Shown here piece by piece: positions 1,410 to 60,134 of a DNA stretch of 64,000 bases. This stretch comes from Candidatus Aminicenantes bacterium UBA6228. Lineage in GTDB: Bacteria > Acidobacteriota > Aminicenantia > Aminicenantales > Saccharicenantaceae. The notes beneath the pieces were generated by a model. The model worked only from the letters and a program-made list of their open reading frames with translations, did not search any database and was not told the origin of the DNA. The position numbers were made by a program, and so were the translations under genes. The stretch's first letter is position 1; each line of letters starts with the position of its first letter. The stretch covers positions 328,130 through 392,129 of the forward strand of contig DJWO01000014.1 in the NCBI GenBank assembly GCA_002441005.1. The letters run 5' to 3'.

Positions 1410-3287
1410 TCAGGCTTTTTTCCGCTCAATTTTCATCTGCTTGAGATATGAGTCGTCTGGCCGGCCATCATCATTCCAGCCTCGAGCCCGGTAATAATCG
1501 CGGCGCATCTGGATCATATTCTCACGGCTGATAGCCCGGGGCTTGCCTTCTGACATTATCGGGATCTCCGAAAAGCGCAAAGGCAGCACGTCCTCTTCTT
1601 CCGGGTTGAGGCCAGCCTTGAGATTAAATAAGCGCTCGAGGGAGGCGATGCGGTTGGCTATTTCTTCGAGGTGAGCCGTCGAAAAATCATAGCCGGTAAT
1701 GCCACTGACAATTCTTGCCCAGGGTTCAATGGCGAAGGAAAAACCGGTGAAGCGGCAAACGCCGAGGCTATCCTGAAGAATGCCGGTATTCTGCATATTG
1801 CGAATGGCAATGGGTGATTGCAAAAGGCTAAAGCGGGGAATCTCTTTGGTGCCGCCAAAAAAGGCCAGCGAGACGGCATAACCGCCGCGAAGGTGACAGG
1901 CACCGGTGGGAGAAGTCATGTAGCCAAGGGCCTGGGCATAAGAGGCCCGCGGGTCATAACCCGGGATTTCCAGCTTTTTGACCTGCATGGCCAGCTCGGG
2001 ATGACCACAAGCAGCCGCCAGGCGGTAGGAACCCTCAGCCAGAAGGGAGCCAATACCTTGCCTATAGGCCGTAAGTTCGACCAGCTTTTCAAGGAGATCG
2101 CCACGGCCAAATCTAATTTCGAGGCCGTCAGTTTGCCTGGGAGTCAGATAGCCTTTCTCATAAAGCTCCATGGCGCAGGCCACTGTTCCGCCAAAAGTGA
2201 CCGTGTCGAGGCCGAGTTCGTTGGCCAGATAGTTAGCTTGAATGATGTAATCGAGGTCATAGATGTCGCAGACCGGGCCCATCAAAACGGTTGTCTCATA
2301 TTCGGGTCCTTCGCCCTGGTGGATCTGGCCGTCAGGCGTCTTGACTGCAGTGTGACGCTGGCAGCCAATCGGACAGAGATAACAGGAGCCTGCTTTTTCC
2401 AGATAGCCGCGGGCAATGGCCTCGCCAGAGATGCGCTCGACTTTATCCTCGTCATGGTTGACATCGAGAAAATTCCGGTGGGGCAACATGTTAATGACAT
2501 TGATAAGAAGAATGAGACCGGCCGTGCCCAGTTCGCGCATCAGCCTTTTGGTAATTGGGGCCTGCTTTAATAGATAAATGGCTTGGTCGACACCGGAGCG
2601 GTAACGGGCTTCATCGGCGATAGTGATTTTTTCGCGGCCACGGACACGAATCCCTTTGAGGTTTTTACTGCCGAAAACAGCGCCAGGGCCGCCGCGGCCA
2701 TAGACCCGGTTTTTATCGTTGGCGACAACAGCATATTTGACGAGATTTTCACCGGCCGGTCCGATGACCAGGGCGCGGTAGAGATTGCCGGGAGTGCTGC
2801 CGGCAGTCAGGATATCGGTTGACTCGGGGACATTTTTCCCCCAGAGATGAGACGCATCCAGGATTTCAATTTTTTCCGGGCTAAGGTCAATAAAAACAGG
2901 GTAGCTGGCCCGGCCGCGGATAATGAGGGCATCGTAACCGGTGGCTTTAAAAGTATGGCCCCAGGTTCCGCCAGAGTTTGAGGTGCCGATGTAACCAGTG
3001 AGAGGCGATTTATAGACCATATGACCACGGCCGGCAGTGGGGGCTTGCGAACCGACGAGCGGCGAGCTGGCGATGACAATGACATTATCGGGGCCGAGGG
3101 GATCGGTGGCGGGATCGATCCGGTCATAAAAAAGTTTGGTGGCCAGACCGCGGCCGCCGAGATAAAGAAGAACATCCTCAGAGGCCAGCGCTTCGATTTT
3201 GATCTGGCCGGTGGTCAGATCTATTTCCAGCACCCGGCCGTGGTATCCAGGAATGGCCATCTTCGTCTTACCTGCCTTACCTTCCAA
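1410..3287 (-). CDS. aor: Aldehyde:ferredoxin oxidoreductase (tungsten/molybdopterin-containing AOR family)
   Basis: 625-aa ORF. Its N-terminal domain (MAIPGYHGRVLEIDLTTGQIK...PLTGYIGTSNSGG) is typical of AOR. A Cys-rich [4Fe-4S] motif (GSCYLCPIGCQRH) and the C-terminal AOR domains are present. The true start may be the second Met (MAIPGY..., about 3260). Confidence 0.88.
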   Translation of the reverse strand: MEGKAGKTKMAIPGYHGRVLEIDLTTGQIKIEALASEDVLLYLGGRGLATKLFYDRIDPATDPLGPDNVIVIASSPLVGSQAPTAGRGHMVYKSPLTGYIGTSNSGGTWGHTFKATGYDALIIRGRASYPVFIDLSPEKIEILDASHLWGKNVPESTDILTAGSTPGNLYRALVIGPAGENLVKYAVVANDKNRVYGRGGPGAVFGSKNLKGIRVRGREKITIADEARYRSGVDQAIYLLKQAPITKRLMRELGTAGLILLINVINMLPHRNFLDVNHDEDKVERISGEAIARGYLEKAGSCYLCPIGCQRHTAVKTPDGQIHQGEGPEYETTVLMGPVCDIYDLDYIIQANYLANELGLDTVTFGGTVACAMELYEKGYLTPRQTDGLEIRFGRGDLLEKLVELTAYRQGIGSLLAEGSYRLAAACGHPELAMQVKKLEIPGYDPRASYAQALGYMTSPTGACHLRGGYAVSLAFFGGTKEIPRFSLLQSPIAIRNMQNTGILQDSLGVCRFTGFSFAIEPWARIVSGITGYDFSTAHLEEIANRIASLERLFNLKAGLNPEEEDVLPLRFSEIPIMSEGKPRAISRENMIQMRRDYYRARGWNDDGRPDDSYLKQMKIERKKA

Positions 3288-3315: not shown

Positions 3316-3433
3316 GGGGACACAATCTATATTTCCTATTTTTTTATACAATAAGGGAGCTCGCAGGTAAACAAATAATGAGCCAGTGACCGGTCAAACG
3401 ATCAAATAATTAGGAAATATAGATTGTGTCCCC
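3316..3433. repeat. Pair of perfect 23-bp inverted repeats (GGGGACACAATCTATATTTCCTA at 3316-3338; its reverse complement at 3411-3433) flanking a 72-bp AT-rich segment
   Basis: Direct sequence comparison shows identical arms, and the flanks (aaacag / attt) are also conserved. The same arms recur at 6141-6163 and 6308-6330. The element sits 29 bp upstream of the AOR start codon and 17 bp downstream of the MoaD-like stop. Confidence 0.9.
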
Positions 3434-3450: not shown

Positions 3451-3735
3451 TTATCCACCGCCCATTAAGGGAAAGATGGTTACTGTCGCTCCATCCTCAA
3501 GCTTGAGCCCGGTCAGGGCATCATGGCTTACTATCGAGCCATTAATCATAATCACCAGATCTTCTCTCACCTGCCCATCTTTAAAGATCTCAGGCCTGGC
3601 CGCAGGTGTTTCTGCTAAGCGGTCAAGAAGTTCTATGAGACCTGGATTCTCATCAAAGACCAGTTCTTTTTCCTTAGCGCCAAATAACTCACGAAAGGGA
3701 GCATAAAACTTAACTTTAATTTTTATCGGTGGCAT
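3451..3735 (-). CDS. MoaD/ThiS-family sulfur-carrier protein
   Basis: 94 aa. It starts with MPPIKIKVKFYAPFRELFG and ends ...TVTIFPLMGGG, a beta-grasp protein with a C-terminal Gly-Gly. It lies next to the pterin-dependent AOR. Confidence 0.75.
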   Translation of the reverse strand: MPPIKIKVKFYAPFRELFGAKEKELVFDENPGLIELLDRLAETPAARPEIFKDGQVREDLVIMINGSIVSHDALTGLKLEDGATVTIFPLMGGG

Positions 3736-3875: not shown

Positions 3876-4673
3876 TTAGATAACTTTGGGATACATGACA
3901 GCCCCGATCAGAACCAGGATAATGGTGATGGCCGCCAGCACTCCCAGATCAAACCCAATTTGATAGGTGCCTGTTCCACCGACCAGCATCAATTGTCTCA
4001 GGATGTCAACTTCATAGGTCAAGGGATTAAGATGAGAAACGACTTGAAGCCAGGAAGGCATAATGGAAATCGGATAGATGGCGTTACTGGCAAAAAATAG
4101 CGGCATGGTTAAGACCTGTCCCAGGCCCATAAAGCGCTCCCTCGTTTTAACGATGCAGGCAATGATCAGGGAAAAGGTTGAAAAAAGAGCAGAACCAAGA
4201 ACAACGGCCAGAGCTACGCCAAGCAAAGACAGCAGATTGAAGTTCAAATGGACGCCGAGCAAAAGTGCGATGACGACGACAATCAGGCCCTGAGCCAGCC
4301 CTCTTACCCCAGCCGATAAGGCTTTTCCCAGTACCAGAGCCGCCCGCGGCGTTGGACTGACTAAAAACTTATGGACGACCCCCAGATCCTTTTCCCAGAT
4401 GATAGATATTCCATAGAAAATAGCGATGAACAAAACACTCTGAGCCAGAATGCCAGGCGTCATAAAATCAAGGTAAGGCAAATTCCCGGTAGGTATAGCC
4501 CTGACCCGGGTAAAGACCTGGCCGAAGACGAGCAACCACAGGGCAGGTTGAACCGCCCGGGTAAGAAGCTCGGTTGGATCGTGTCGCAGCTTTCTCATTT
4601 CCAGTTCAGCTAAAACTAAGGTTTTATTGCTGAAAGAATAGATTTGTTGGAATAATGATCTGAAAAACTTCAT
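3876..4673 (-). CDS. ABC-2 type transporter permease
   Basis: 265 aa with six predicted TM helices. It is translationally coupled downstream of the ABC ATPase. The topology is ABC-2 family. Confidence 0.7.
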   Translation of the reverse strand: MKFFRSLFQQIYSFSNKTLVLAELEMRKLRHDPTELLTRAVQPALWLLVFGQVFTRVRAIPTGNLPYLDFMTPGILAQSVLFIAIFYGISIIWEKDLGVVHKFLVSPTPRAALVLGKALSAGVRGLAQGLIVVVIALLLGVHLNFNLLSLLGVALAVVLGSALFSTFSLIIACIVKTRERFMGLGQVLTMPLFFASNAIYPISIMPSWLQVVSHLNPLTYEVDILRQLMLVGGTGTYQIGFDLGVLAAITIILVLIGAVMYPKVI

Positions 4674-4742: not shown

Positions 4743-5543
4743 TCAACCTAAGCGCCGGGCGACGCGCCTCGTTCTGGATATATCTCGAAAGTTTCCGCCA
4801 TTATCCAGCTCGTTCCCGGTATAATGGATAAAAACATCATCAAGCGTCACTTCCTCACCCCGTCCGACTGCTGTTTTTAATTCCTGGGGAGAGCCCAGGG
4901 CAGCCATCTGTCCCAGGTGCATGATAGCTACGCGGCTACAAAGCTCATCTGCTTCATCCATGAGATGAGTGGTCAGAAAAATCGTCGTTCCAAACTGCTG
5001 ACGAAGATTTATGATGTGTTCCCAGACCGTACGCCTTGCCGCCGGGTCGAGCCCGATGGTTGGTTCATCCAGGAAAAGAACGCGCGGGTGGTGGAGCATT
5101 GACTGGGCAATTTCCAGCCGCCGTATCATGCCACCAGAATAGTGCCGAACAAGCTTATCAGCCACTTCCTCCAGACCCATGTAACGCAAAGCCTGTCTGA
5201 CCCGTTCTTCACGTTCCTGACGCGGAACATCATAGAGCCTGGCAAAAATCATTAAATTTTCATAACCGGTCAAAGTGCCGTCAGCCGAAATTAATTGTGG
5301 AACATAACCAATCATTTTTCTCACCCGGGCCGCCTGATGGCGAACGTCAAAACCAGCAACCATCGCCTGGCCAGACGTTGGCGGAAGCAGTGTGGTCAGT
5401 ATTTTTATGGTCGTTGTCTTACCGGCACCATTTGGACCCAGCAATCCAAAAATTTCACCCTCATCAATGGTAAGAGACAGGCGGTTGACAGCCAGGAGCT
5501 CGCCGAAGCGCCTGGTTAAATCTCTTGTTTCAATAATCTTCAT
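4743..5543 (-). CDS. ABC transporter ATP-binding protein
   Basis: Walker A (GPNGAGKTT), the ABC signature (YSGGMIRRLEIAQS) and Walker B (LFLDEPT) are all present. Confidence 0.92.
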   Translation of the reverse strand: MKIIETRDLTRRFGELLAVNRLSLTIDEGEIFGLLGPNGAGKTTTIKILTTLLPPTSGQAMVAGFDVRHQAARVRKMIGYVPQLISADGTLTGYENLMIFARLYDVPRQEREERVRQALRYMGLEEVADKLVRHYSGGMIRRLEIAQSMLHHPRVLFLDEPTIGLDPAARRTVWEHIINLRQQFGTTIFLTTHLMDEADELCSRVAIMHLGQMAALGSPQELKTAVGRGEEVTLDDVFIHYTGNELDNGGNFRDISRTRRVARRLG

Positions 5544-6037
5544 AGCAGTCGTCCTTTTGGTCTCGAATCTCGTTTTTCTTTATGGGATCGATCAGAGGTC
5601 TTCGGAAAGACCAGAGCCTCGAGCAGTAACTCGAAACCCTCATCAATCTTCTGGATTTCTATCGGAGGCAAGTAGTCGAGATGCTCTTGAAGGTTTTTGA
5701 GCGTCGCTTTTTCAGCCAAGGTCAACAGTTTCATGCCCTGGTGGCTCAAATGAAGCTCAATCTGCCGCCTGTCTTCCAGGCCCGATTCCCTGACTATCAA
5801 ACCGCGTCTGACCAGATTATCAACCATTCGGGAAGCCGTGGCCAGGGATAATCCATGGTGAGCAGCCAGAGCTGAGAGCGAGGCCCGCGAGTGGCGACGG
5901 CAAAAAAGAAGTGTGCGAAACTGAGCCAGAGACAGATCTGGCTGGCGGTACTGCCTCATGTTCGACCGGATATAGCCCATCAGTCTGGGTATTCCTTCCA
6001 TAAGCCTGACTGCCAATTCTTCAATCTTATCATCCAT
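5540..6037 (-). CDS. MarR-family transcriptional regulator
   Basis: 165 aa with a winged-helix core (LSLAQFRTLLFCRRH...SLSALAAHHGLSLATASRMVDNLVRRGLIVR). It is the first gene of the marR-ABC-ABC operon and overlaps the ATPase start by 4 bp. Confidence 0.8.
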   Translation of the reverse strand: MDDKIEELAVRLMEGIPRLMGYIRSNMRQYRQPDLSLAQFRTLLFCRRHSRASLSALAAHHGLSLATASRMVDNLVRRGLIVRESGLEDRRQIELHLSHQGMKLLTLAEKATLKNLQEHLDYLPPIEIQKIDEGFELLLEALVFPKTSDRSHKEKRDSRPKGRLL

Positions 6038-6079: not shown

Positions 6080-6108
6080 AGCATAGTCCTGGTCTTGACC
6101 TTTGTCAA
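6080..6108 (-). promoter_or_regulatory. Putative sigma-70 promoter of the marR operon, with an overlapping palindrome TTGACctttGTCAA
   Basis: On the minus strand: TTGACA (complement of 6103-6108), a 17-bp spacer, then TATGCT (complement of 6080-6085). The palindrome TTGAC-N4-GTCAA at 6095-6108 overlaps the -35 box and could be the MarR operator. Confidence 0.45.
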
Positions 6109-6140
6109 CGGCAGAGCAAAAAACCGCCCTTATTTAAACA

Positions 6141-6330
6141 GGGGACACAATCTATATTTCCTAATTATTTTCCTCTTTGAGTAAGGAGGGGAGGACTGCT
6201 AATTGAGTCAGTAAGGGGACGTGGTAAGGGGCCGTTCCTAACCGGCACTTAATTCGACCATATGACCCGGCTCGCCAGGCACAAAATCATTTAGAGGACC
6301 AAGAAAATAGGAAATATAGATTGTGTCCCC
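6141..6330. repeat. Second copy of the 23-bp inverted-repeat pair (arms 6141-6163 and 6308-6330) flanking a 144-bp segment
   Basis: The arms are identical to those at 3316-3433, including the aaacag / attt flanks. The inner sequence is unrelated to that of locus 1. The right arm ends 3 bp before the pilQ stop codon (6334-6336). Confidence 0.9.
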
Positions 6331-6333
6331 ATT

Positions 6334-8502
6334 TTAACGGGCGATGACCAGCATTTCGCCACCCACCAGGTTGACAGCCCGGCCCTGCACTCCGAGGACC
6401 TGAATTGAGGAGATGCCTACTCTGGTCTCGCCTGCCCCCAGGACTTCAAAAACCAGCGTGGCCAGATTGCCGCTATTTACACCTTTAGCCGGATCCGGTG
6501 ACGAAAAGCCTATTACGGCCAGCCCCGAAGAAGCACTTATATCCTGGAGAAAAGAGCCTTTATCACCAAACTGGCTGACCAGGTCCCCTCTCTGAATTTC
6601 TTTAAGTCTCAACACTTTAGAGTCGTAATTAACATTCAGAGACAAAGACGTTATATCCACTGGCGAATTGACGGCTAATCTGACATTTAATGTATAGCCC
6701 ACCGGCACTTCCGACCGCTCGGGTAACAGCGACACTGTTCCCATCTGGGCACCAGCTTCGGCCGCCTCCTCTGCCGGGACTTCCACTCCGGCTTCAACTG
6801 GAGGTATGGTTTCTTCACCGCCGCCAGCAGCCGTCTGCGTTTGCGTCGTAAAGCTTGAGCCGGCATTATCGATCCACAGCGGCTCACTGTCTTCAGCCTT
6901 TAAAGGCATTGTCCTGATAATATGCGGAGTTATGGTCAGGATCACATCAGTCTGGTCAACTGTCCGGTCAGCACTCGAAAAAAGGCTGCCCAGAATAGGG
7001 ATATTTTTCAGGCCAGTCACTCCCTTCAGAGATTTCCGCTCCTCATCCTTGAGTAACCCGGCCAGTAAATTGGTTTCGCCATCCTTGAGTCTGATCACAT
7101 TCTTGACCGACCGGGTAGAAATAATGGGAATATCGGCGATTCCCGTACCACTGATGGCTGTGATTTTGACTTCCATTTCCAGACTGACTTCATTTTCCTG
7201 ATGCAACCTTGGTTTGATATTCACTCCAATGCCAACATCCTGATACTGATAGGAAACCATTGGCTGCTGGCTGATACCGCCGGCAGCAATTGGATTAAAG
7301 GTTGTACTTGGAATTGGTACTTGCTGACCAACCAGATAATTTATTTCCTCGCTGTCAACTCCCCTCAGCCTTGGCTGGGCGATAATTTTTGTATCCGAAT
7401 CAGTCTCTATAAACTGAAGAAGAACCGAAGGCAGGGTTATCTGAAAATTTTCTGATTTGGAAAGATCAAAACCCTCGAGAGGCAGCCAGCCGTCGGTTGG
7501 GATTTCGCTCACCCCACCCGTATATCTGATGGACCCATAGCTCTGGCTGAACTGCGTGCCGATAGTTTGCAGTCTTGTTCTGGAGACTTCCATGATCTCC
7601 AGATCGATAATTACCTCGCCCTTAGGCTTATCCCAGGACTGAAGCAGTTTCTCGGCCAGGGCCACGACCGTTGCCGTGTCTCTGATGGTCAGCGAATTTC
7701 TTGTTTTGTCAACAATAATGCTGGGGCCTTTATACTGAGTCCGCAGGATAGAAGCCAGCTGATTTTGCACGTCCTGGGCATTTATGTTAGAGAGGTAGAT
7801 AGTTTTAATGGCATTGACTTCATATTGATTTCGTTTTTGCGGGTTGTCAGGAATGATGATCGCCGTTCGCTCATCCATCACCCGGTAGAAAGTCCGCCCG
7901 GTCAGGCAGAGTGAGTTAATAGCCTGTTCGACAGTTAGATCAGTCAGATCAATCGAAACAGGCAGATCACGGAACTGCTCGTCAAACAAAAAGTTGATCC
8001 CGCTGAACTTTCCCAGAGCCTGGAAAATCGCCCGCAAAGAAGCATCGGTAAATTTCAGTTTCAGTAATTCGGGCGGGTATTTTAATTTTACTGGAGCTTC
8101 AATCACCACTTCTTTGGGCTTGACTTCAACGGCTGGCTTGATACCGGCCAATTCTTTATACTCAGCCAGAATCATCCTGTTGGTTGGATCATAAAACAGG
8201 GCCTTTTTATATTGATTAAGAGCCTCATCTTTCATTCCTCCCGCCGCCAGGCGCCTGGCCCTTTCAGCCGCATCCAGCGCTGCCACGGCCTTCGTCCGGA
8301 AGAGAGCCAGCCGGTAAACTGACTCTTTAGGATTTTCCAGCATCGCCTGCTCATAGTATTTAATGGCCTCATCATAATTCTTATTGATCTCGGCCTGATA
8401 ACCGAGCTTATAGGACTGGGTAAAAGTAGAACAACCAAGTATATTTATGATTAAGAAGCCAAGAAAAAGCCAGCTGATTTTTCCCGGTCTGATTTTAGTC
8501 AT
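6334..8502 (-). CDS. pilQ: Type IV pilus secretin PilQ (type II/III secretion secretin family) with an N-terminal lipobox-TPR module and a C-terminal cohesin-like domain
   Basis: 722 aa. A lipoprotein signal (LGCS) and TPR-like helices come first. Secretin N-domains and the secretin core follow (...GVTGLKNIPILGSLFS...ILTITPHII). A Gly/Ala/Glu-rich linker then leads to a roughly 135-aa C-terminal beta-sandwich (LSLNVNYDSKVLRL...GNLATLVFEVLGAGETRVGI) that resembles cohesin domains. Confidence 0.8.
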   Translation of the reverse strand: MTKIRPGKISWLFLGFLIINILGCSTFTQSYKLGYQAEINKNYDEAIKYYEQAMLENPKESVYRLALFRTKAVAALDAAERARRLAAGGMKDEALNQYKKALFYDPTNRMILAEYKELAGIKPAVEVKPKEVVIEAPVKLKYPPELLKLKFTDASLRAIFQALGKFSGINFLFDEQFRDLPVSIDLTDLTVEQAINSLCLTGRTFYRVMDERTAIIIPDNPQKRNQYEVNAIKTIYLSNINAQDVQNQLASILRTQYKGPSIIVDKTRNSLTIRDTATVVALAEKLLQSWDKPKGEVIIDLEIMEVSRTRLQTIGTQFSQSYGSIRYTGGVSEIPTDGWLPLEGFDLSKSENFQITLPSVLLQFIETDSDTKIIAQPRLRGVDSEEINYLVGQQVPIPSTTFNPIAAGGISQQPMVSYQYQDVGIGVNIKPRLHQENEVSLEMEVKITAISGTGIADIPIISTRSVKNVIRLKDGETNLLAGLLKDEERKSLKGVTGLKNIPILGSLFSSADRTVDQTDVILTITPHIIRTMPLKAEDSEPLWIDNAGSSFTTQTQTAAGGGEETIPPVEAGVEVPAEEAAEAGAQMGTVSLLPERSEVPVGYTLNVRLAVNSPVDITSLSLNVNYDSKVLRLKEIQRGDLVSQFGDKGSFLQDISASSGLAVIGFSSPDPAKGVNSGNLATLVFEVLGAGETRVGISSIQVLGVQGRAVNLVGGEMLVIAR

Positions 8503-41000: not shown

Positions 41001-41146
41001 GCCTAATAGCGGTTGATTTTTTCCCCGGGATGTATTATAAAGATTCTTACTCCGAGTCGGCTAAGCTAAAGCCAGCGGCCAGGCTGACCGACCGTCAGGG
41101 TAAAGCCGGAAACGGTTTTGCCTCCCAGTTGGAAAGGAGAATTAAG

Positions 41147-43087
41147 ATGCGCGTCTCAAAAAATTTTCCAGGATTTTTATTGTTCTGCCTCACCTTCTTA
41201 TTATCATTTTCATTGATTACAGTCATTGCCTTGGCTCAGGAAAATACTGATCAGGAAAAGAAGAAGGAAAAAGAAGAGAAACCGGTCAGGATTAAAACCG
41301 AAGAAATTATGGTCACGGCCAGTGCTCCCCAGGAAAAACCTTTAGCCACGGTTTCGACTATTGAACCTCAGACTATCAAGTTGCTTAAAACAAAAAATAT
41401 TTCTGAAGTACTATCATTTGTTCCCGGAACTCATGTTACCGTTGGGGCTAAAGCCGAGTCTCACATTAAGATAAGAGGACTGGATAATGATAAATCGACC
41501 CTCCTGCTTGATGGTATCCCGGTTTACGAGCCTTATTATAACCTTTACGATTTAAAGACCGTGCCCAGCGAGGACATTGAGTCTATTCAGATTACCAAGG
41601 GTTCTTCTTCTATTCTCTATGGAGCCAATACCATGGGTGGAATAGTGGAAGTCCTGACCCGCCGGCCAGAAAAGACTTCTCTCGAGCTAAACTCCAGATT
41701 CAGTCAAAACTCTTCCTTTGATTTTTCGGGAACGGGTTCATACTATAGTCCGAAATTTGCCTTTAAACTGTCAGCTCTTCACAATGAAACTCAGGGTTAT
41801 GATTACCGCCAATCAGGTGCTGATTTATCTCTCCCCAATTCAGATTACAAAAATAATTTTTTCAACGGAAAATTTTATTTTTATCCCAGCCAGAAAAGCG
41901 AAATTCTATTTCAGGCTTCTTATTATGACTCATCTTATGGTATTCCACCGGCCACTGAATATTACTCTCCCCGTTACTGGCGCTTTAAAGATTGGGAGAG
42001 GTCGGTCATTGGCCTGGGTGGGACTTTTCCCCTGTTCAAAACAGGCACCATCAAAATCAGAACTTATTATGTAAAATTTTATAATGTCCTGGATGCTTAT
42101 ACTGATTCAACCATGAGTGCCCTCAACTGGGAATCCATTTATGATAATTACGAAACCGGGGCTTTTATCCTGGGCGCTTTCAGCCTGAGTAAAAATAATG
42201 ATTTACGTTTCAGCCTTAATGGCCGGTATGAACACGTCGAACAACAAGGTTCAGCTACCTCACCCTGGGAATTATATAAGCACCATGTCTATTCGGCCGG
42301 AATAGAGGATGAATGGCGGCTGACTTCCAGATGGACCTTGATTGGCGGCCTGAGCTTTGACTATCTCAAAAAACAGGAAGGCCAGGAAAAAACCTCTGTT
42401 AATCCTATCGCCGGGATAAAATTTAAGCTGACGGAAGAAGCTAACCTTCATTTTTCCTTTTCCCGAAAATCACGTTTCCCCTCGATGCGTTCCCTTTACA
42501 GTACCACCAGCGGTAACCCCGATCTTAAAGACGAAACAGGCACTTCCTTCGAGCTTGGAGCTGACTATTCGGGCTGGTTAACTGGCGGTTTAACCGGTTT
42601 CACCTCTGACTATAAGGATCTGATTTACGTTATTCGCCAGCCTGATGGAACTAAGAAATATATCAACGTCGGGGAAGCCCGGATTAGAGGCTTTGAGACT
42701 TATCTATCCAAGAGCATCAAACATTTTAATTTTCAGGTCAATTACACCTACCTTGATGCTAAAAACCTGACTGATAACCGGCTGCTTGACCTGGTCCCAG
42801 AGTCTGAAGCCAGTTTGCTGGCCAGTTATCTGATGCCGGAAAACTTCAGCCTGACCCTCTGGGTTCTGATGGCTTCCAGGTCAGAAATATTAATCAGTTC
42901 CAGTACGGTTCCCGTGCCGGGCTATACAGTCGCTAACCTTTCCCTGGAAAAATATTTAAGGGGAGGTTCATTGTTCATTAAAGTAGAGAATCTGTTTAAC
43001 AAAGCTTATTACACCGAGCCCGGTTATCCTTCTACCAGCCGGCGGTTTGAAGCCGGATTTACTTTCCGGGTTGGTCCGGCTGATTGA
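41147..43087 (+). CDS. TonB-dependent outer-membrane receptor
   Basis: Signal peptide, plug domain (LDGIPVYEPYY..., IQITKGSSSILYGANTMGGIVEV) and a C-terminal beta-barrel ending in an aromatic residue. The true start is the ATG at 41147 (RBS GGAAAGGAG), not 41030. Confidence 0.85.
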   Translation: MRVSKNFPGFLLFCLTFLLSFSLITVIALAQENTDQEKKKEKEEKPVRIKTEEIMVTASAPQEKPLATVSTIEPQTIKLLKTKNISEVLSFVPGTHVTVGAKAESHIKIRGLDNDKSTLLLDGIPVYEPYYNLYDLKTVPSEDIESIQITKGSSSILYGANTMGGIVEVLTRRPEKTSLELNSRFSQNSSFDFSGTGSYYSPKFAFKLSALHNETQGYDYRQSGADLSLPNSDYKNNFFNGKFYFYPSQKSEILFQASYYDSSYGIPPATEYYSPRYWRFKDWERSVIGLGGTFPLFKTGTIKIRTYYVKFYNVLDAYTDSTMSALNWESIYDNYETGAFILGAFSLSKNNDLRFSLNGRYEHVEQQGSATSPWELYKHHVYSAGIEDEWRLTSRWTLIGGLSFDYLKKQEGQEKTSVNPIAGIKFKLTEEANLHFSFSRKSRFPSMRSLYSTTSGNPDLKDETGTSFELGADYSGWLTGGLTGFTSDYKDLIYVIRQPDGTKKYINVGEARIRGFETYLSKSIKHFNFQVNYTYLDAKNLTDNRLLDLVPESEASLLASYLMPENFSLTLWVLMASRSEILISSSTVPVPGYTVANLSLEKYLRGGSLFIKVENLFNKAYYTEPGYPSTSRRFEAGFTFRVGPAD

Positions 43088-59057: not shown

Positions 59058-60134
59058 CTATAAAGCAATGCTCAGGCTCAGTCCGAAATATGGATCAAAA
59101 TATTTCTGGCCTTTAAACTCTTTCGTTCTAACCACGGCATAAAAAGTCAGGGCCGCCTGCTCGCTTTGATAGACCAGGCCTGAAGTCAACTGACCATAAA
59201 GATGATGAAGTGACTGGCCAGGACCGGCAGCAAAAGTATTCCCTTCAATTAAGAGATTTCTGGCCAGAGCCTGGCCTGATAGCCGGCAAAAGCCATAGAC
59301 CGAGGTTCTTTTAACTCCAGTCAGAGGCGACTGGCCAAAAAGCGGGGCAGAATGAACTGCCTCGTTTTCCAGCTGAAGATTCAGGCCAAATCTAAAATCA
59401 ATAATAGTTTCAACCGAAGTTCGCAGGTTCCCCAGCTGGCCGCCAACTCCAGCTTTAACTGCCGGACGCCAGCCCCGCCCTGCTTTCTCCGGACCGATCA
59501 GTGTCCAGAAACGATTAAACCAGATATCCACCACCGGCTCATTTTTTAGCTGGTTTCTCCAGCCCTGGGGCTCAGTCCAGCCGTAAGTCTCATGAAGCCA
59601 TTTCTGGGTGGCTCCGGCTAAAGACAGCGGTCCGACCACACCCAGGCCTGCTCCCCAGACCGTCTGCTTTCGCCCCGCATTTCTAACCAGGGTCAGGCCA
59701 GCATAGAGAAGACCGGCATAAGGGCGGTCGTCGCTGATTAACTCTTCCTCAGTCAGATCAGCCGGGGTAAACATGCCTTGAGCTAAGGAGACTATTGCCC
59801 ATCTCTGGCTTAAGTCTTCAGACTTAGAATAATCAAGATTTCCAGTTTTTTTCTGATTTCCCAGAAGCCTGGTGTTGAGCTGATATAAAAACCTGAGCCA
59901 GGCCGATTTAGACTCTCTATTCAGCTGGGGAGAAACCCAGCTAAAAGACAGCCCGTTGCTGTAGCCATCATCCTGATTAAACCAGACATCATTTTCAAGA
60001 TTAAAAACAAAATTGCCCCTGCCTGCTGGCCCGGCCGGGAATTCAGGCGGTTGTCCGGCTAAAAGCAGCCAGGCTGGATAGAAGCTGAAGATGGCAACCA
60101 GAGAAACCAGTTTAAACCGGGGGACACTACGCAT
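59058..60134 (-). CDS. Outer-membrane protein, possibly an LpxR-family lipid A 3'-O-deacylase (DUF2219-like)
   Basis: Signal peptide. NLENDVWFNQDDGYSNGLSFSW resembles the conserved LpxR N-terminal motif. The C-terminal residue is aromatic (L...SIAL). Weak. Confidence 0.35.
   Translation of the reverse strand: MRSVPRFKLVSLVAIFSFYPAWLLLAGQPPEFPAGPAGRGNFVFNLENDVWFNQDDGYSNGLSFSWVSPQLNRESKSAWLRFLYQLNTRLLGNQKKTGNLDYSKSEDLSQRWAIVSLAQGMFTPADLTEEELISDDRPYAGLLYAGLTLVRNAGRKQTVWGAGLGVVGPLSLAGATQKWLHETYGWTEPQGWRNQLKNEPVVDIWFNRFWTLIGPEKAGRGWRPAVKAGVGGQLGNLRTSVETIIDFRFGLNLQLENEAVHSAPLFGQSPLTGVKRTSVYGFCRLSGQALARNLLIEGNTFAAGPGQSLHHLYGQLTSGLVYQSEQAALTFYAVVRTKEFKGQKYFDPYFGLSLSIAL

Follow-up and report, generated by a model that had tools for sequence, protein, structure and literature searches.

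What kind of element keeps its arms and changes its interior? Between the stop codon of a PilQ-like secretin gene and the promoter of a marR operon, a contig of Candidatus Aminicenantes bacterium UBA6228 carries a pair of inverted 23-nt repeats (6141-6330, here locus 2) whose arms are found again at a second place (3316-3433, locus 1) around a different sequence. We analysed both loci in the whole 64,000-nt stretch of DNA (the window), together with loci fetched from related genomes and metagenomes, which carry L numbers below.

Two loci with the same arms and different interiors

The features around the two loci are as follows; every gene of this region lies on the minus strand.

1410-3287, minus: aldehyde:ferredoxin oxidoreductase
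3316-3433, no strand: locus 1 doublet, 118 bp, with arms at 3316-3338 (plus) and 3411-3433 (minus) and a 72-nt interior
3451-3735, minus: ThiS-like protein
3876-4673, minus: ABC-2 permease
4743-5543, minus: ABC ATPase
5540-6037, minus: MarR
6080-6108, minus: sigma-70-type promoter (TTGACA-17-TATGCT) of the marR-ABC-ABC-thiS operon, outside the doublet and beyond the left arm
6118-6129, minus: GGGCGG then UUUUUU on the minus-strand transcript, terminator-like
6141-6163, plus: left arm of locus 2, exact 23-mer GGGGACACAATCTATATTTCCTA, with unit limits at about 6135-6170 (AAACA + arm + ATTATTT)
6164-6307, no strand: interior (spacer) of locus 2, 144 nt
6181-6231, plus: three short GTAAGGRG repeats (6181, 6211 and 6224)
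6308-6330, minus: right arm of locus 2, exact 23-mer, inverted
6334-8502, minus: PilQ-like secretin

The exact 23-mer GGGGACACAATCTATATTTCCTA occurs at four sites in the window, namely the four arms, and 100 dinucleotide-preserving shuffles of the window gave no match to it with up to 3 mismatches permitted. A repeat finder extended the arms of locus 2 with their flanks to 33 nt of 91% complementarity (6134-6166 and 6305-6337) and the arms of locus 1 to 30 nt. The initial annotation had described the arms and their outer flanks as the same at both loci and the interiors as unrelated, and both statements hold: aaaca precedes GGGG and attt follows CCCC at each locus, and the 144-nt and 72-nt interiors share only 7-nt T-run matches. 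The 3-nt gap that it gave between the right arm (ending at 6330) and the secretin stop codon (6334-6336) is also correct, and the outer A-run of this arm (AAAAT on the minus strand) overlaps the stop TAA. Its three copies of GTAAGGRGG have to be shortened by one letter, as the 9-mer occurs only once (6181) and the 8-mer GTAAGGRG three times. The triplet is non-random, because the whole window has just 4 matches on both strands; its second copy, GTAAGGGGACGTG, resembles the head of a further repeat family, GGGGACGTGATACTCTGTCCC, from relatives.

The interior of locus 2 had no match in any other fetched locus and no Rfam family, no coding was found in it, and its predicted fold was not above chance (z 0.09). 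In the window, Rfam searches (gathering threshold and E<=1) returned only a Moco riboswitch elsewhere and a spurious match to a miRNA precursor that arose from the long hairpin. The marR promoter region is conserved in orthologs, with TATATT as the -10 element in L038 and L039. The secretin itself has an unusual architecture, with an N-terminal TPR, FecR_C, Secretin_N, Secretin and a C-terminal Cohesin domain.

The conserved unit is one asymmetric arm

When all copies were aligned, conservation covered one asymmetric arm of about 36 nt and ended there. This unit reads a(A)AAA-[C/A]-[T/A], the invariant 23-mer and [T/A]TTTTtt; its limits were taken from the frequencies at each position among 244 non-redundant copies. 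The alignment agrees with the proposal that the arms and not the interior are the conserved unit. Among species-representative genomes, 36 loci carried the 21-nt core, all from Aminicenantes/Saccharicenans/Acidobacteriota-type MAGs with a few labelled otherwise, and a metagenome scan gave at least 120 loci, the majority of them in samples of anaerobic digesters and sludge. We counted 358 arm copies in 163 sequences when up to 4 mismatches were permitted. All are intergenic; the one copy that falls in a called gene does so through a crude ORF-call artefact. The arm sequence was absent from the literature searched, in which nothing on Aminicenantes repeats was found. It also had no match in viral contigs, and a phage origin is not supported.

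The arms have a strict polarity. Neighbouring arms less than 600 nt apart were arranged +- in 91 cases, ++ in 9, -- in 4 and -+ in 1, and the spacers of the doublets range from 40 to 532 nt. About half of the arm copies form such head-outward inverted doublets, and the remainder are singles or short direct arrays, so the suggestion that the arms always come as inverted pairs has to be dropped. The initial annotation had regarded a 23-mer that is mostly unpaired or inside genes as evidence against its reading; with half of the copies unpaired, what we found comes near to this and stops short of it. Its placement of the copies at operon boundaries is right for many of them; co-directional, convergent and divergent gaps all contain arms. 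The density is 0.06 arms per kb in the window (4 per 64 kb) versus 0.5-0.7 per kb on some contigs, and on these nearly every inter-operon gap has an arm copy. In several genomes the copy number is modest, at about 3-12 exact copies per MAG. An arm acting as promoter was considered and rejected, since no sigma-70 or sigma-54 geometry was seen by eye and both orientations are equally frequent in co-directional gaps.

Arms bracket an HUH/Y1 transposase gene in relatives

Targeted Pfam scans of the ORFs between arms identified a gene for a Y1 transposase. In L025 (6081-6743) its product is a Y1_Tnp protein of 220 aa (Pfam E 6e-12), which is identical in L069. The only NCBIfam match of the L025 protein is 'REP-associated tyrosine transposase', at 67 bits and thus under the 80-bit cut-off, and its only PDB sequence match is 4ER8, the E. 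coli TnpA-REP, with which the HUH motif and the catalytic Y align. In fold, the AlphaFold model of a protein 94% identical to it (P0009, pLDDT 88) matched 4ER8 best (E 8e-8, TM 0.72), and the IS608, ISDra2 and IS200 transposases ranked below. The H-x-H motif and the Y are invariant among 9 transposase homologs.

In L025 one arm lies 88 nt upstream of the ATG of the transposase gene and another 9 nt past its stop codon, followed by two inverted arms further on. All ten transposase loci inspected are bracketed by arms with their heads outward, and seven of the ten had been retrieved through the protein and not through the repeat. The body of the arm changes from one transposase lineage to the next, and the GGGGAC head is common to most variants:

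Lineage A arm: GGGGACACAA[T/A]CTATATTTCCTA
Lineage B arm: GGGGACAC[A/T]CTACATATTTACCTA, on both sides of the gene in L167 and L131
Lineage C arm: GGTGACGCCCTACATGTTTCCTG, with the head GGTGAC
Lineage D arm: GGGGACAGTTC[A/C]CCTATTTACCTA, in L168

The transposase of L163 (94% identical) is flanked by the identical 23-mer; that of L166 (81%) has three flanking arms, each of them with the T11A variant. In L036, GGTGACGCCCTACATGTTTCCTG or a related sequence stands three times upstream of the gene and, inverted, twice downstream of it. C-type arms were seen nowhere but at the C-type gene, and the arms of the transposase locus L175 are GGGGACACAATACTCATTCACCA. Y1 homologs are also present on an Elusimicrobia-labelled contig (L172, 1156-1877) and a Deltaproteobacteria-labelled contig (L173, 1058-1884), where they lie inside inverted repeats of 27 nt (perfect) and 31 nt (90% complementary), respectively. 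Both of these repeats start with GGGGACAC; therefore, the head is conserved across phylum labels.

The initial annotation had taken the arms for sites of a recombinase or a DNA-binding protein. Because the arms bracket the HUH/Y1 gene of relatives and their variants co-vary with its lineage, they are very probably sites of a DNA-processing enzyme, and this is likely to be a single-strand HUH transposase and not a classical site-specific recombinase. The lineage-A gene always has the order DUF5916 - RAYT - peptidase M28, at 81-100% identity, and the lineage-B gene sits after a peptidase M24 gene; this conserved synteny points to single-copy transposase genes that are vertically inherited. The arms in the window belong to lineage A only, and no RAYT homolog was found in its 64 kb. 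A GGGGACAC site at 60120 of the window was considered as a further arm and rejected, as it is not an arm.

Interiors differ and arms turn over

About 68 non-redundant doublets have interiors of 42 families, and most interiors are unique. Interiors that recur at different sites belong to the locus-1 family and to a family of 125-137 nt. The 72-nt interior of locus 1 recurs with 83-94% identity in three or more flank contexts (L104, L111, L106, L044 and L142), and its family has two copies on single contigs. Judging from these sequences, locus 1 looks like a replicated 118-bp element. The statement that the pair is not a simple duplicated MITE is thus valid for locus 2, with its unique interior, and fails for locus 1, whose 118-bp element recurs at several sites.

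The junction between pilQ and marR differs among relatives. In the ortholog L039 (MarR 87% identical) one degenerate arm follows the stop codon, no second arm is present, and the inner flank of this arm resembles the interior of locus 1. L038 and L093 retain 'TAAAAT GGGG' after the pilQ stop codon, and a second repeat family, GGGGTCGGGCCAGC[C/A]GATTTGCTTTATTATCA, then follows. The position of the right arm after the stop codon is thus kept in all three orthologs, and homology across the junctions is limited to the marR promoter and 5' UTR. Since the interior is unique and the ortholog junctions differ, there is no sign that the locus-2 doublet has moved as a unit; it seems to have been assembled in place. 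The contig of L037 (98% identical) begins and ends within arms.

Pairs of loci with the same flanks have or lack an arm-bearing segment. A single 38-nt unit distinguishes L007 and L114 from L083 and L045, and a 205-nt doublet distinguishes L122 from L145. At another site a single arm (L045 and L103) corresponds to a doublet (L077 and L090). The lineage-A transposase gene with one arm is itself polymorphic (L025 5717-6851, 1133 nt, versus L128 4117-4456, 340 nt): L128 lacks the gene at the syntenic position, and the two loci differ in length by the distance between two direct arms. A gene-bearing segment of 1.08 kb together with a doublet is present in L062 (373-1453) and absent in L113 (3161-3359). 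The boundaries of these polymorphisms are short local direct repeats that involve A/T-runs, with no constant duplication. The L062 segment contains a 196-aa ORF with no Pfam match and two bracketing doublets, and an HNH_2 endonuclease gene adjoins it; this spot may be defence-island-like. In L105 (2187-2561) an arm doublet encloses the C-terminal remnant of a lineage-A-type transposase gene.

A further sign of turnover is found just outside full arms, where 25 of 244 copies have a 'head stutter', compared with 1-2 in controls. It consists of truncated A-run-NN-GGGG(ACAC) copies or of tandem duplications of the flank and arm head, as in these examples:

L090 4700-4727
L117 6793-6812
L085 11555-11583
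L037 2727-2748

The arm of L037 that is orthologous to a locus-1 arm of the window has an 11-nt duplication, ctataaatggg, which is absent in the window. Between the two arms of doublets 5 substitutions were shared versus 73 unshared, a count that is biased by ascertainment through exact matches, and mixed T11/A11 doublets are common.

A probable REPIN-like doublet

Taken together, the observations describe a repeat family of strict polarity and intergenic distribution, with presence/absence polymorphisms and, in relatives, a co-varying association with a transposase. We regard the feature as most likely a small mobile element, non-autonomous and of a kind that is known in general. More specifically, the locus at 6141-6330 is probably a REPIN-like doublet of a RAYT-type (HUH/Y1) transposase system of Aminicenantes/Saccharicenans, for which the cognate enzyme in this genome is putative. 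The doublet would consist of two inverted, dispersed extragenic repeats of about 36 nt with their GGGG heads outward. By analogy with E. coli TnpA-REP and the IS200/IS605 enzymes, a transposase encoded elsewhere in the genome would recognise the arms on single-stranded DNA, and it would cut and rejoin near the conserved head, a cleavage position that we infer from TnpA-REP and IS608. Such cutting and rejoining, again by analogy, would spread, exchange and delete arms with no target-site duplication, as is expected for Y1 enzymes. The basic unit would be the single arm, and doublets would form or decay locally, which would explain the unique interior of locus 2. Identical arms around an unrelated interior are therefore an expected property of a REPIN-type element and not a puzzle.

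It is also conceivable, though we think it rather unlikely, that the family follows HUH/Y1 repeat dynamics distinct from those of REPINs. Here the non-palindromic arm of about 36 nt would be the unit and its head (A-run-NN-GGGG) the cleavage or target site, lineage-specific bodies would be swapped or appended, and the host would have co-opted arms as 3'-end elements that abut stop codons. A head that serves as target would explain why there are orphan and stuttered heads, why different repeat families follow one post-pilQ head among strains, and why GGGGAC(AC) is common to several transposase lineages and three phylum labels.

Alternative explanations and a predicted role at the pilQ 3' end

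It is unlikely that the arms are purely host-selected regulatory elements, either protein-binding sites or bidirectional terminator/3'-UTR elements, that have never been mobilised and whose association with a transposase is incidental. One point in favour of this explanation is the position of the arms relative to genes: the outer (GGGG) end lies -2 to +6 nt from a stop codon of the same strand in 55 of 264 non-redundant copies (21%), and the inner end does so in 1 of 264. A spacing of 4-5 nt is the most frequent, and therefore the final A(s) of the stop codon start the A-run of the arm; the abutment may reflect a target preference or selection. In E. coli, REPs within 15 nt of a stop codon reportedly influence translation (Liang et al. 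2015). The conserved position after the pilQ stop codon across species, the identity of the 23-mer across species, and the layout of the doublet (A-run, GC-rich stem base and U-run), which resembles bidirectional intrinsic terminators, also fit a host element. Against it, single arms in co-directional gaps are sense in 25 cases and antisense in 22, and copies occur in divergent promoter regions as well. Single arms of four lineages are not palindromic, and their predicted folds, at 0 to -2.6 kcal/mol, do not surpass those of shuffles; no compensatory changes between the arms of doublets were seen in a test that shares the exact-match bias. Presence/absence polymorphisms exist, and the arm bodies follow the lineage of the transposase that they flank, down to the restriction of C-type arms to their own gene.

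Host function may well coexist with mobility, by analogy with the E. coli REPs, which have a host function alongside their mobility. In the pilQ transcript the doublet has a predicted fold of -85.5 kcal/mol (z -7.5) with a 23-bp stem, or 33 bp with the flanks; the values for the locus-1 doublet are -48.3 kcal/mol and z -6.9. GGGCGGU (6129-6123) can pair with AUCGCCC in the last pilQ codons (6345-6339), which lengthens the stem, and U6 follows directly. The stem base is GGGGACAC/GUGUCCCC plus this outer stem, then U6, and the marR promoter is about 10 nt past the U-run. A scan for consensus terminators found no canonical terminator after pilQ or thiS; the doublet is not called because its loop is far larger than those of canonical terminators. 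From this predicted structure it is plausible that the doublet terminates or stabilises the pilQ message shortly before the marR promoter is reached. Such a role is not needed to explain the family, because arms are also found in divergent promoter regions.

A classical MITE, that is, a deletion derivative of a DDE-type IS that moves by cut-and-paste with the arms as terminal inverted repeats of 23-33 bp, is very unlikely. It would fit the head-outward polarity (91:1), the locus-1-type element with the same interior at several sites, and the assemblies that break at arms (L037). However, among 68 non-redundant doublets compared with shuffled flank pairs there was no excess of 3-9-bp target-site duplications at offsets of up to 12 nt. 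All-against-all clustering of the ORFs between and near arms gave housekeeping families only, with no DDE transposase or recurrent recombinase; the sole transposase between arms is the HUH/Y1 protein. The 42 interiors among about 68 doublets, and the solo arms that make up half of the copies, are also at odds with this origin.

Even less probable are site-specific recombination sites, similar to integron attC or to Xer/dif modules, around exchangeable modules such as marR-ABC-ABC-thiS. Doublets are indeed often separated by 2-3 kb with one to four genes between them, as at 3316 and 6141 in the window, and L062 and L113 differ by a gene-bearing segment of 1.08 kb plus one doublet. But no integrase or tyrosine recombinase recurs near the arms, single arms are common, and the arms have neither the GTTRRRY core of attC nor a dif-like dyad. 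The bracketed genes form ordinary housekeeping operons that may point either way, divergent promoter regions included, and exchange between repeats, whether homologous or HUH-mediated, explains the polymorphisms equally well.

A signal similar to DNA uptake sequences, which in Neisseria stand as inverted pairs 3' of genes, is brought to mind by an inverted pair at the 3' end of a gene for a type IV pilus secretin, and is hardly credible given a length of 23-36 nt, far longer than known uptake sequences, an exclusively intergenic location, a low and very uneven density (0.06 per kb here and up to 0.7 per kb elsewhere), and the spread of arms over unrelated loci, because of which the adjacency to pilQ is incidental.

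Comparison with known mobile repeats

The probable assignment to a REPIN/RAYT-like system rests on several likenesses to E. coli TnpA-REP with its BIMEs and to the REPINs of Pseudomonas fluorescens. As in these systems, the Aminicenantes arms are extragenic, occur as inverted doublets and as singlets, and are conserved around a variable spacer; the HUH/Y1 gene is bracketed by its cognate repeats and looks single-copy and vertically inherited, and each lineage has its own repeat type. Target duplications are lacking, and the closest solved structure of the enzyme is 4ER8. REPINs are described as conserved flanking REPs around a highly variable spacer, which by definition is <130 nt, and they have been linked only to RAYT groups 2 and 3 (bioRxiv 10.1101/2021.07.10.451892). 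Work on these groups has dealt chiefly with Gammaproteobacteria.

The differences are also clear. The Aminicenantes arm is a 23-nt non-palindromic sequence, unlike the palindrome of about 14 bp in REPs, and the spacers reach 532 nt and are often above 130 nt. The REP classes of E. coli and Pseudomonas have a conserved GTAG tetranucleotide at the 5' end; in its place the Aminicenantes arms have the head A-run-NN-GGGGAC (GGTGAC in lineage C). The transposase reaches 67 bits against the 80-bit NCBIfam RayT cut-off and has a C-terminal extension of about 70 aa. Arms directly next to stop codons are frequent, and truncated 'head' copies have built up outside arms. The same doublet at several sites, as expected of REPINs that replicate as a unit, was seen for the locus-1 family and not for locus 2.

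The IS200/IS605 elements and their miniature derivatives (PATEs) share the HUH/Y1 fold with H-x-H and Y, the lack of target-site duplication, and a short conserved sequence kept at the element boundary. The ends of IS200/IS605, however, are asymmetric subterminal hairpins and not a 23-nt inverted repeat, and these elements are multi-copy, whereas the Aminicenantes genes look single-copy and syntenic; in sequence and fold the Aminicenantes transposase is nearer to TnpA-REP than to IS608 or ISDra2. Bacterial MITEs such as Correia/NEMIS, ERIC and RUP are likewise small, non-coding and intergenic, have terminal inverted repeats, often lie at gene ends, and, like the Aminicenantes doublet, can form a long hairpin in transcripts. 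Unlike them, the Aminicenantes family has no target-site duplication and no DDE parent, and it has diverse interiors and many solo arms. Integron attC sites resemble the doublets as imperfect inverted repeats between genes with conserved ends and a variable centre, but the Aminicenantes loci have no R/L core sites, integrase or cassette array, and the bracketed genes, unlike integron cassettes, are ordinary operons with their own promoters in both orientations.

The REPIN-RAYT association is the main example of long-lived, vertically inherited mobile repeats in bacteria and has been characterised almost only in Gammaproteobacteria. The family described here would extend it to the uncultured Aminicenantes, a phylum with no prior description of it, and related arms are present in Elusimicrobia- and Deltaproteobacteria-labelled contigs. 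These arms lack the palindrome that is thought to be the recognition element, and the enzyme may instead read the GGGGAC head or the hairpin of the doublet. In practice, the arms break short-read assemblies (L037) and mark points of rearrangement and deletion; therefore, they should be masked or modelled when Aminicenantes MAGs are binned and compared.

Other repeats and regulatory sequences near the arms

Two more repeats were seen beside the arms. The second dispersed repeat, in full GGGGTCGGGCCAGC[C/A]GATTT(T)G(C/T)TTTATTATCA, has the same 'A-run + GGGG' head and head stutters of its own. It is found at:

L093 3883-3925
L038 2406-2440
L062 130-175
L113 3380-3420
L122 4460-4492
L145 about 4600

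The other is a short hairpin, GGGGACGTGATACTCTGTCCC(C) then a T-run, which often adjoins arms (L013 at about 2235-2260, and the outer flanks in L035, L064, L066, L067 and L085). Its head, GGGGACGTG, is also present inside the interior of locus 2, at 6215-6223.

The interior of locus 1 (3339-3410, minus) contains a possible promoter, TTTACC-17-TATAAA, directed toward the oxidoreductase gene. A promoter enclosed by a doublet is also found in L009, L010, L027 and L033, where the second arm lies in the 5' UTR right before the ribosome-binding site. Elsewhere in the window (41038-41155, plus) there is a Moco/tungsten cofactor riboswitch (RF01055, 66.8 bits), and the same window encodes the tungsten-type aldehyde:ferredoxin oxidoreductase (1410-3287, minus), which is preceded by the ThiS-like gene.
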